From Escherichia coli (GTDB lineage: Bacteria; Pseudomonadota; Gammaproteobacteria; Enterobacterales; Enterobacteriaceae): a DNA stretch of 64,000 nt. Below, in pieces: positions 35,701 to 38,700 of the stretch. The position numbers were made by a program. Location of the stretch: NCBI RefSeq assembly GCF_022846255.1, contig NZ_AP025682.1. One strand, 5' to 3'. Position 1 is the stretch's first letter; the number at the start of each line of letters is the position of its first letter.

Positions 35701-38700
35701 TCGCTAATGGCGGTGAACTCAAACCGCAGGAAAATCCGAACGCGCAAGCGATTCAGGATGATTTAAAAGATATCGATTCTGAATAAGAAACAAAAAAGGT
35801 GAGTCGCAAAACTCACCTTTTTTCTTATTAAGCTAACGCGTTATCAGAACGCGTAGTTAAAGTTAGTACCGAACAGCCAGGCTTTACCTTCAGACTCGAA
35901 CTGATATGGGCCTTCGTTAATTTTCACGCTCTGACCGTGCATATAAGAAACACCAACGTCGACTGAAGCGTCTTTATTAAATGCGTAAGTCGTACCTGCA
36001 CTCAGCCAGAAACGGTCCTGGTCCGGAATGGAGATAGAACGATTCTGTGCCGGAACTGGGCTGTCATCAAAGGCGATACCGGTACGGAAGGTCCAGTTAT
36101 CATCGTAGTAATAAGTGGTACCCAACGCGATGCGGTAAGCATCTTTAAAGCCTTCATGTTTCTGGAACAGCGTGTCGCCACTCGTTGAGGTCGCTTTCAG
36201 CTGCTGGAACTGACTCCAGCTGGTGTAAGCCAGGCTATAGTGAATTGCCCACTGCGGAGCAACACGGTTATAACCCGACACTTCCCACATTTCAGGCAGG
36301 TTCAGCGTCAGATAACCTGACTGCGTTGCGCCACCTGTCGCGGTAGGAATTGGCAAACCGTAGTTATTAAAAGCCGGGTTAAGATCGCTGCTGTAGTTAC
36401 CCTTGAAGTCAATTTTCACTTCAGAGCGGTAGGTCAATGCGTAGCGGTTGTTTTTATCCAGTTCATACAGGATACCGGCGTTCCAGCCAAAGCCCCACTG
36501 GTTACCGTTCAGGTGAGCGATTTTGGTATTACTGTCGATGCCGTTGGCGGTAGCTGCTAATGCTTGCCCCTGAGGAGTCAGCCAAGCAGGAGATTGCCTA
36601 ATCTGACCAGCCACCAGTTGCCCCAGATCGCCTGCGAAACGTTCAATTTTCGCGCGAGCGTAGACGGCGTTGAAACCAAGACCAAAGCTCCATGCATTAT
36701 TTAAGCGATATGCACCGCTTAAGTTCAGGTTCATGGTTTCGAGGTCGGTGGTACCACCGACAGAACCGCCTGCATAAGTATCGTTAAACTCTGTCGCCAG
36801 ACCATAGTTAGAGGTAATTGAAGCCCCCCAACCAAATTGGTCGTTAATCGGTGCAACAAAGTGCATGTTCGGAACCCATGCCGTAGGCGCGATGTTATCG
36901 GCTTTCAGGCTACGACCAGACGGAGACGTTCCGCTGATATTTACATCCGGATCAATATAAACCGCACCCGCAGAAAATGTCGGGCGGTCAAACATGGTAA
37001 TCAATGCGGGGTTACGGCTAACGTTACCTGCATCATCGGCAATTGCACCTTCCCCTGAATAAGCCCGGCCCAGGCCAGAGGAAGAAAATTCGTTTAACTG
37101 AAAGCCTGCCGACCAGGCCTGGGTGGAGATAAGTGCCACTGCGACTGCGAGAGCAGACTTTGTAAACAGGGTTTTCTGGCTCATGACCATAACCTCAATG
37201 ATTTATTTTTATACAAACTATGTTACGTGCTGTAACAGGAGCGCGAAGTGTAGGGTCTGAGGTACATCTTAGAAATCAGACCAGTGGCGAGAGTATAGGT
37301 CGGACCAGCTGGAATGTTGCAAGTATGTTTCTATTTTTTTTCAGATATGATCTAAGAAACGCGATCCAGCTGGCAAAATTGGGAGGTGGCGCACTCATGG
37401 ATTCGGGTGAATTTTGTTTTAGATCATTTTTAAGTGTGATTTCGGTCACTTATCCGATTTTGCAGAATTAACAACTGGAGCAGCACTTTCCGGAAGCGTA
37501 AAATATCCACAACGTTTATCTGGCACCTTGGGTGCACATACAGAGGAAATCAACGATGAGTAAATGTAGTGCTGATGAAACCCCGGTTTGCTGCTGTATG
37601 GATGTTGGCACCATTATGGACAACTCCGACTGCACCGCGTCTTACAGCCGTGTGTTTGCAAACCGCGCAGAAGCAGAACAAACGCTGGCGGCGCTGACTG
37701 AAAAAGCCCGTAGCGTGGAATCCGAACCGTGCAAAATCACCCCGACTTTCACTGAAGAGTCTGACGGTGTGCGCCTGGATATCGATTTCACTTTTGCCTG
37801 CGAAGCTGAAATGTTGATCTTCCAGCTGGGTCTGCGTTAATTCCTCTCGGGTATATACGCCCCTGTCAGTTCCTGGCGGGGGCGTTTTATTTTCTCTTCT
37901 ACTTTTCTCTCTGTGTCATAGCTCCCACTTTCCCTTTTCTCCACTTGGCTAAATGTAAAAAAATGGTTAAGACTATGATCAGGTCAGACCACTTTATTTA
38001 TTATTTTACAGGGGAGTGTTATGGGTCAGGTTTTACCGCTGGTTACCCGCCAGGGCGATCGTATCGCCATTGTTAGCGGTTTACGTACGCCTTTTGCCCG
38101 ACAGGCGACGGCTTTTCATGGCATTCCCGCGGTTGATTTAGGGAAGATGGTGGTAGGCGAACTGCTGGCACGCACCGAGATCCCCGCTGAAGTGATTGAA
38201 CAACTGGTCTTCGGTCAGGTCGTTCAGATGCCTGAAGCCCCCAACATTGCGCGTGAAATTGTTCTCGGTACTGGAATGAATGTGCATACCGATGCTTACA
38301 GCGTTAGCCGCGCTTGCGCTACCAGTTTCCAGGCGGTTGCAAACGTCGCAGAAAGCCTGATGGCGGGAACTATTCGAGCGGGGATTGCCGGTGGGGCAGA
38401 TTCCTCTTCCGTATTGCCAATTGGCGTCAGTAAAAAACTGGCGCGCGTACTGGTTGATGTCAACAAAGCCCGCACAATGAGCCAGCGCCTGAAACTTTTT
38501 TCTCGCTTACGTTTGCGTGACTTAATGCCGGTGCCTCCGGCAGTGGCGGAATACTCCACTGGATTACGGATGGGGGACACCGCAGAGCAAATGGCGAAAA
38601 CCTACGGCATCACCCGAGAACAGCAAGATGCACTGGCGCACCGTTCGCATCAGCGTGCCGCTCAGGCGTGGTCAGAAGGTAAACTCAAAGAAGAGGTGAT

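Follow-up and report, generated by a model that had tools for sequence, protein, structure and literature searches.

The fadL and mlaA genes are direct, convergent neighbors in the Escherichia coli region analyzed here (the window, a 64,000-nucleotide stretch of contig NZ_AP025682.1), and comparison with other genomes makes it highly probable that this is the ancestral enterobacterial arrangement, in which the two genes would share a two-way terminator, and that yfdF, the gene found between them in K-12, is a later, horizontally acquired insertion. The finding is correct and ordinary, given that the absence of yfdF from phylogroup B2 has already been published (PMC9241512).

The two genes are arranged tail to tail, with stop codons 57 bp apart (35787-35843). 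The ORFs were re-derived, and the description given in the initial annotation, 57 bp between convergent genes with no gene in between, proved exact in its coordinates. The features of this interval are as follows:

35031..35786, plus strand: mlaA (vacJ), 251 aa, outer-membrane phospholipid-binding lipoprotein
35787..35843: mlaA/fadL spacer, 57 bp, the empty counterpart of the K-12 yfdF cassette site
35792..35823: hairpin with terminator anatomy on both strands (A6, stem GGTGAGT/ACTCACC, 6-nt loop, T6)
35792-35797, 35798-35804, 35805-35810, 35811-35817 and 35818-35823: parts of the hairpin, namely A6, GGTGAGT, loop, ACTCACC and T6
35824..35831: equivalent of the cassette insertion point, between the T-tract and TAAGC (BLAST breakpoints 35830/35832)
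35844..37184, minus strand: fadL, 446 aa, long-chain fatty-acid outer-membrane channel, type I allele

The identities of both proteins are secure: MlaA matches PF04333 over its full length (2.7e-65) and scores 504.6 bits with the NF011672 equivalog (cut-off 375), and the gene is annotated under the same name in the matching genomes; FadL shows a full-length match to the FadL/OMPP1/TodX transporter family (PF03349, 5.3e-168) and scores 878 bits with NF007988 (cut-off 585). The stop codon of mlaA is TAA (35784-35786), and that of fadL is TGA, read from 35846-35844 on the minus strand. If the in-frame ATG at 37190 is used instead of the RefSeq-style start at 37184, the fadL ORF occupies 35844..37190 (minus strand) and encodes 448 aa.

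In K-12 MG1655, the annotated gene order is fadL (b2344), yfdF (b2345), mlaA (b2346), yfdC, argW and intS. The statement in the initial annotation that K-12 carries yfdF between fadL and mlaA is thus borne out by the MG1655 map, on which the two genes are separated by yfdF rather than directly adjacent. The flanking genes of K-12 and the window are 95-99% identical, whereas the fadL and mlaA stop codons are 1,605 bp apart in K-12 compared to 57 bp in the window. The extra cassette of K-12 spans 1,545 bp (L001:7660-9204), with a GC content of 36.4% compared to 49.3% in the flanks. The BLAST alignment with K-12 extends to 35830 on the mlaA side and resumes from 35832 on the fadL side, which places the insertion point at 35830/35831 of the window; among all the occupied alleles compared, the matches end at 35823-35830 on the mlaA side and start at 35829-35832 on the fadL side. 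In K-12, the old hairpin still lies on the mlaA side of the cassette, with stem and loop identical to those in the window, whereas the other contents of the K-12 interval, namely a second hairpin beside fadL, the MxiE-box promoter region (PMC9769918) and yfdF itself (352 aa), are absent from the window. Neither terminal inverted repeats nor integrase-type junctions are apparent at the ends of the cassette, where at most a 2-bp TA duplication is seen.

The second hairpin of K-12 directly follows fadL (L001:7660-7700) and consists of the stem GTCACCTGC (-16 kcal/mol) with a tail of only 3 T, so that fadL transcription may read into the H-NS-silenced yfdF region.

Searches of the window with blastn and tblastn detected no remnant of the yfdF cassette or of the YfdF protein. 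Measured in 300-bp segments, the GC content is 42-46% over the spacer and 48-53% on either side, and no AT-rich scar is apparent. A yfdF deletion scar was considered and rejected, given that no DNA or protein similarity to the cassette exists anywhere in the window.

To place the two states in a phylogenetic perspective, we used MlaA to retrieve one locus from each of 80 species genomes (one genome per species); both gene ends could be placed in 78 of these. The mlaA-fadL gap is 41-126 bp long in 73 of the 78 other Enterobacteriaceae species, including E. albertii, E. whittamii, Salmonella, Citrobacter and Klebsiella, and no yfdF homologue was found in any of the 78. The spacers of E. albertii, E. 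whittamii and the cryptic Escherichia clades are 59-61 bp long and almost identical to that of the window. Because the outgroups have the short gap and lack yfdF, the state of the window appears to be ancestral and yfdF derived. The suggestion in the initial annotation that this genome lacks the yfdF insertion accordingly holds: the 1,545-bp cassette is absent, no remnant is detectable, and the outgroups support the polarity. The most plausible scenario is that the lineage of the window, which is B2-like at this locus, never received the yfdF cassette, whereas most of the remaining E. coli lineages, such as K-12 and O157, would later have gained yfdF (icaT) on an AT-rich cassette of about 1.5-1.8 kb, which presumably entered by horizontal transfer on the fadL side of the old hairpin.

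Both states are well represented in E. coli. The empty site, recognized by a contiguous match to a 601-bp junction query, occurs in 1,125 (21%) and the K-12 cassette in 4,299 (79%) of the 5,426 complete E. coli genomes, so that the two states together account for 5,424 of them. The query of about 600 bp matches at most three places per genome, which is explained by the mlaA and fadL halves of the occupied sites. As far as these genomes indicate, the presence or absence of yfdF is a two-state, lineage-level polymorphism, with B2-like genomes empty, rather than a single-strain trait. The initial description of a strain-level difference accordingly needs refinement, since the empty site is shared by 1,125 of the 5,426 genomes and its occurrence in B2 is in the literature.

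Two alternatives to an ancestral empty site deserve consideration. Although both states coexist in E. coli and yfdF assorts independently of the neighboring fadL allele class (see below), which implies that recombination moves segments between lineages and could replace an occupied allele with an empty one in single strains, it is very improbable that yfdF is ancestral to E. coli and was precisely deleted in the lineage of the window: the empty spacer matches its counterparts in E. albertii, E. whittamii and the cryptic clades in base-for-base collinearity, none of the outgroups carries yfdF, the GC content of the cassette is 36% compared to 49% in the flanks, and, with no cassette remnant in the window, a deletion would have to restore the ancestral sequence exactly. 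The more trivial explanation, that the adjacency is an assembly artefact in which the yfdF segment was collapsed or dropped, has a vanishingly small probability and is already refuted by the occurrence of the same junction in 1,125 independently finished complete genomes as well as in nearly all related species.

The history and function of yfdF have been addressed previously. The gene has been renamed icaT, and its product is an MxiE-dependent type III secretion substrate (Silue et al., mSphere 2022, PMC9241512); it was found in phylogroups A, B1, D and E but is absent from B2, where the fadL locus is intact, and its insertion was inferred to postdate the divergence of B2 (PMC9241512). It is also AT-rich and silenced by H-NS (PMC9769918). 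The B2 fadL locus described by Silue et al. and the window agree in the genes present, in the absence of yfdF and in the inferred post-B2 entry. That work covered six B2 strains and did not include breakpoints, the terminator or outgroup spacers (PMC9241512); the present analysis adds the exact breakpoints (35830/35831), the frequencies in 5,426 genomes (21% empty, 79% occupied), 78 outgroup species, and stem covariation in what appears to be a well-supported, deeply conserved shared terminator. These additions confirm that yfdF/icaT, an H-NS-silenced and MxiE-activatable substrate of the Shigella type III secretion apparatus, is most likely a later insertion, and that the empty-site (B2-like) E. 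coli would retain the gene order original to enteric bacteria.

The occupied sites examined, from K-12, O157:H7 and a goat isolate, all contain the same gene, yfdF, in allelic forms that encode proteins of 352 aa (K-12, L001:8013-9071), 343 aa (O157:H7, L002:6617-7648) and 399 aa (goat isolate, L003:2570-3769); they vary in length because a stretch of about 47-60 aa is tandemly repeated within the protein and because the O157 version is truncated at its C-terminus. YfdF has no match among the Pfam and NCBIfam models, so that the 'transposase homology' in the name icaT is unsupported by these profiles. A search for the source of yfdF produced no phage match, and the five 'plasmid' matches do not point to a mobile source, as they are all non-mobilizable E. 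coli records, four of them chromosome-sized (1.4-4.9 Mb) and one of 365 kb.

The hairpin in the spacer lies 5 nt past the mlaA stop and 20 nt past the fadL stop. It folds at -20.1 kcal/mol (z = -5.9) on one strand and at -21.4 kcal/mol (z = -4.8) on the other, more stably than any of 200 shuffled sequences; the stem alone, without the A:U extension, contributes -9.1 and -10.1 kcal/mol. When the stem is counted as 7-8 G+C-rich pairs, a U6 tail follows on both transcripts. A consensus terminator scan calls the hairpin on the minus strand only; it is missed on the plus strand because the scan extends the stem through the A/T runs and leaves a T-poor tail on that strand. Even with up to three mismatches allowed, the hairpin is single-copy in the 64-kb window, where 0 chance matches are expected, and on the strength of this single match, a REP element or another dispersed palindromic repeat was rejected.

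The anatomy of this hairpin is deeply conserved. An A-run of 5-8 nt and a T-run of 5-7 nt are kept in the spacers of about 73 of 77 outgroup species. Anchoring the stems on these runs yielded 43 distinct cores, 40 of them correctly anchored, and all 40 pair at each of the seven stem positions; positions 3-7 show 2-4 pair types each, that is, compensatory changes. The stem sequences among the outgroup cores include GGTGAGC, GGTGAAC, GGTGCGC, GGCGAAC, GGTGAGT and GGGTGAAC, and the loops vary freely. Such a pattern is what would be found if the structure of the hairpin, rather than its sequence, were under selection, as appears to be the case here. The joint conservation of the A-run and the T-run would be expected only if each of the two transcripts required a U-tract, and we infer that the hairpin serves as an intrinsic (Rho-independent) terminator for both the mlaA and the fadL transcripts. 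Under this model, the two genes would be transcribed toward each other, both ending at one symmetrical intrinsic terminator, and the 7-8 bp G+C-rich stem between A6 and T6 would give each mRNA a 3' end consisting of a hairpin plus a U-tract. The single bidirectional terminator proposed in the initial annotation is supported in its anatomy on both strands and its conservation, with termination itself predicted from sequence.

Bidirectional intrinsic terminators shared by convergent E. coli gene pairs were reportedly identified by Ju, Li and Liu (2019, Nature Microbiology) using full-length RNA profiling. Like these, the hairpin described here is G+C-rich, is flanked by an A-tract and a T-tract, and is located between two converging stop codons. 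However, in K-12, the strain of such RNA-profiling studies, the pair meeting at this hairpin is yfdF/mlaA rather than fadL/mlaA. The hairpin could instead work in one direction only, or its main role could be to stabilize 3' ends as a stem-loop or to direct their processing; the other gene would then rely on Rho-dependent termination or polymerase collision. The short stem (7-8 bp, -9 to -10 kcal/mol without the A:U extension) and the terminator call on one strand only are compatible with such a role, as is the suggestion in one preprint that head-on polymerase collisions aid termination at convergent genes (bioRxiv 10.1101/2022.10.23.513370); nevertheless, we consider it unlikely because both the A-run and the T-run are kept at 5-8 nt in about 73 species and the hairpin is close to both stops (5 nt for mlaA and 20 nt for fadL). 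If the hairpin indeed acts in both directions, the shared terminator could be exploited as a compact part for two-way termination or as a site for neutral insertions.

There is no room for a gene in the spacer. Of the ORFs of at least 20 aa, the only one to touch it is antisense, 24 aa long and contained within the end of mlaA, and a hidden small ORF was rejected on account of this position. A small RNA or cis-regulatory element was likewise rejected, the Rfam matches in the spacer all being sub-threshold (Ref66, 26.6 bits with a gathering score of 92; PrrB/RsmZ, 20.6 with 44). At 57 bp, the spacer of the window is 4 bp shorter than the 61-bp spacer of ST131 and other Escherichia species; the four extra bases (AAAC or AAAT) lie in the A-rich run just 5' of the hairpin and are present in ST131, in K-12 (on the mlaA side) and in most other Escherichia.

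On the other side of mlaA, the window contains a tRNA gene that is occupied by a prophage:

32336-33529, adjoining argW: prophage integrase gene (IntS-type; intS is annotated in homologous genomes)
33655..33729, minus strand: argW, tRNA-Arg(CCU) (ARAGORN; Rfam tRNA, 63.4 bits)

argW and its prophage are 2.1 kb from the insertion site, with yfdC and mlaA in between. A link between the yfdF indel and argW integration was rejected because the intervening yfdC and mlaA genes are conserved in occupied and empty genomes alike. The initial annotation placed the difference next to the argW integration hotspot; argW is indeed found at 33655-33729, but the proximity is incidental, as there are no integrase-type junctions at the cassette.

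Several other genera carry inserts in the same gap. In Superficieibacter (L071:5257-7612), the gap holds genes for a UbiD-like decarboxylase and a MarR regulator over 2.36 kb, and the hairpin is replaced. One strain of Trabulsiella (L045:5257-7633) has two unknown ORFs in a 2.38-kb segment of 38.5% GC that breaks the hairpin loop. The 217-bp spacer of Cedecea (L078) includes about 150 bp of inserted sequence flanked on each side by a copy of the terminator stem.

Because the insertion points differ among genera and the junctions are devoid of inverted repeats, a targeted mechanism is not supported; site-specific insertion was rejected given the lack of terminal inverted repeats, the TA duplication of at most 2 bp and the different positions of the Trabulsiella and Superficieibacter inserts. 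The simplest reading is that the mlaA/fadL gap is a permissive gap between convergent genes rather than a site-specific target. A more elaborate proposal is that the spacer is a recurrent landing pad for horizontal cassettes in Enterobacteriaceae, a polymorphic hotspot maintained by phage/host pressure beside a trans-species FadL dimorphism; its candidates would be yfdF/icaT in E. coli, the UbiD-like and MarR genes in Superficieibacter, the two low-GC ORFs in Trabulsiella and a small stem-duplicating element in Cedecea, and we regard it as improbable.

The FadL proteins of E. coli fall into two divergent allele classes that are identical in aa 1-80 and then only about 72-77% identical to the C-terminus (window 35844-37184 compared with L085:2449-3789 from ST131 and with L086:3993-5333). 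Type I, found in the window, K-12 and O157, is common to E. albertii, E. whittamii, Salmonella and C. amalonaticus at 91-95% identity; type II, found in ST131, strain T28R and altogether about 1,255 of the 5,426 genomes, is common to the cryptic Escherichia clades at 98-99%. All four combinations of fadL class and yfdF presence or absence exist, indicating independent assortment. Type II fadL is combined with the empty site in at most 859 genomes, which leaves about 266 with type I and the empty site, the combination seen in the window. FadL is the receptor of phage T2, so that the dimorphism may affect phage host range and may matter more in this respect than the yfdF indel. A literature search retrieved no description of this allelic dimorphism.

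The B2 type strain ATCC 11775 shares 98.9-100% identity with the window at the fadL-mlaA locus, and 100% nucleotide identity in fadL. The two are nonetheless not the same genome: that identification was rejected since only 32302-44025 aligns (98.8%) and the argW prophage differs. Positions 1-33600 of the window comprise a lambdoid prophage at argW (portal, tape measure and gpJ-type tail), whereas ATCC 11775, otherwise the closest at this locus, has a P22-like prophage at argW. Among the 5,426 complete genomes, the best matches cover 86% of the query from this prophage, which takes up the left 32 kb, at only 96.6% identity.

No complete E. coli genome is a close match to the window throughout. 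For the right-hand 25 kb of core sequence, the best complete-genome match reaches at most 97.3% overall, with most 1-kb bins at 98-99.8% identity to the best match. Identity to the best match drops to 85-96% in the yfc fimbrial genes (46-50 kb) and to 92-97% in the stretch from prmB to fabB (52-58 kb; aroC, mepA, yfcA and mnmC). The low-identity stretches within 46000-58000 suggest that this part of the window contains recombinant mosaic patches.
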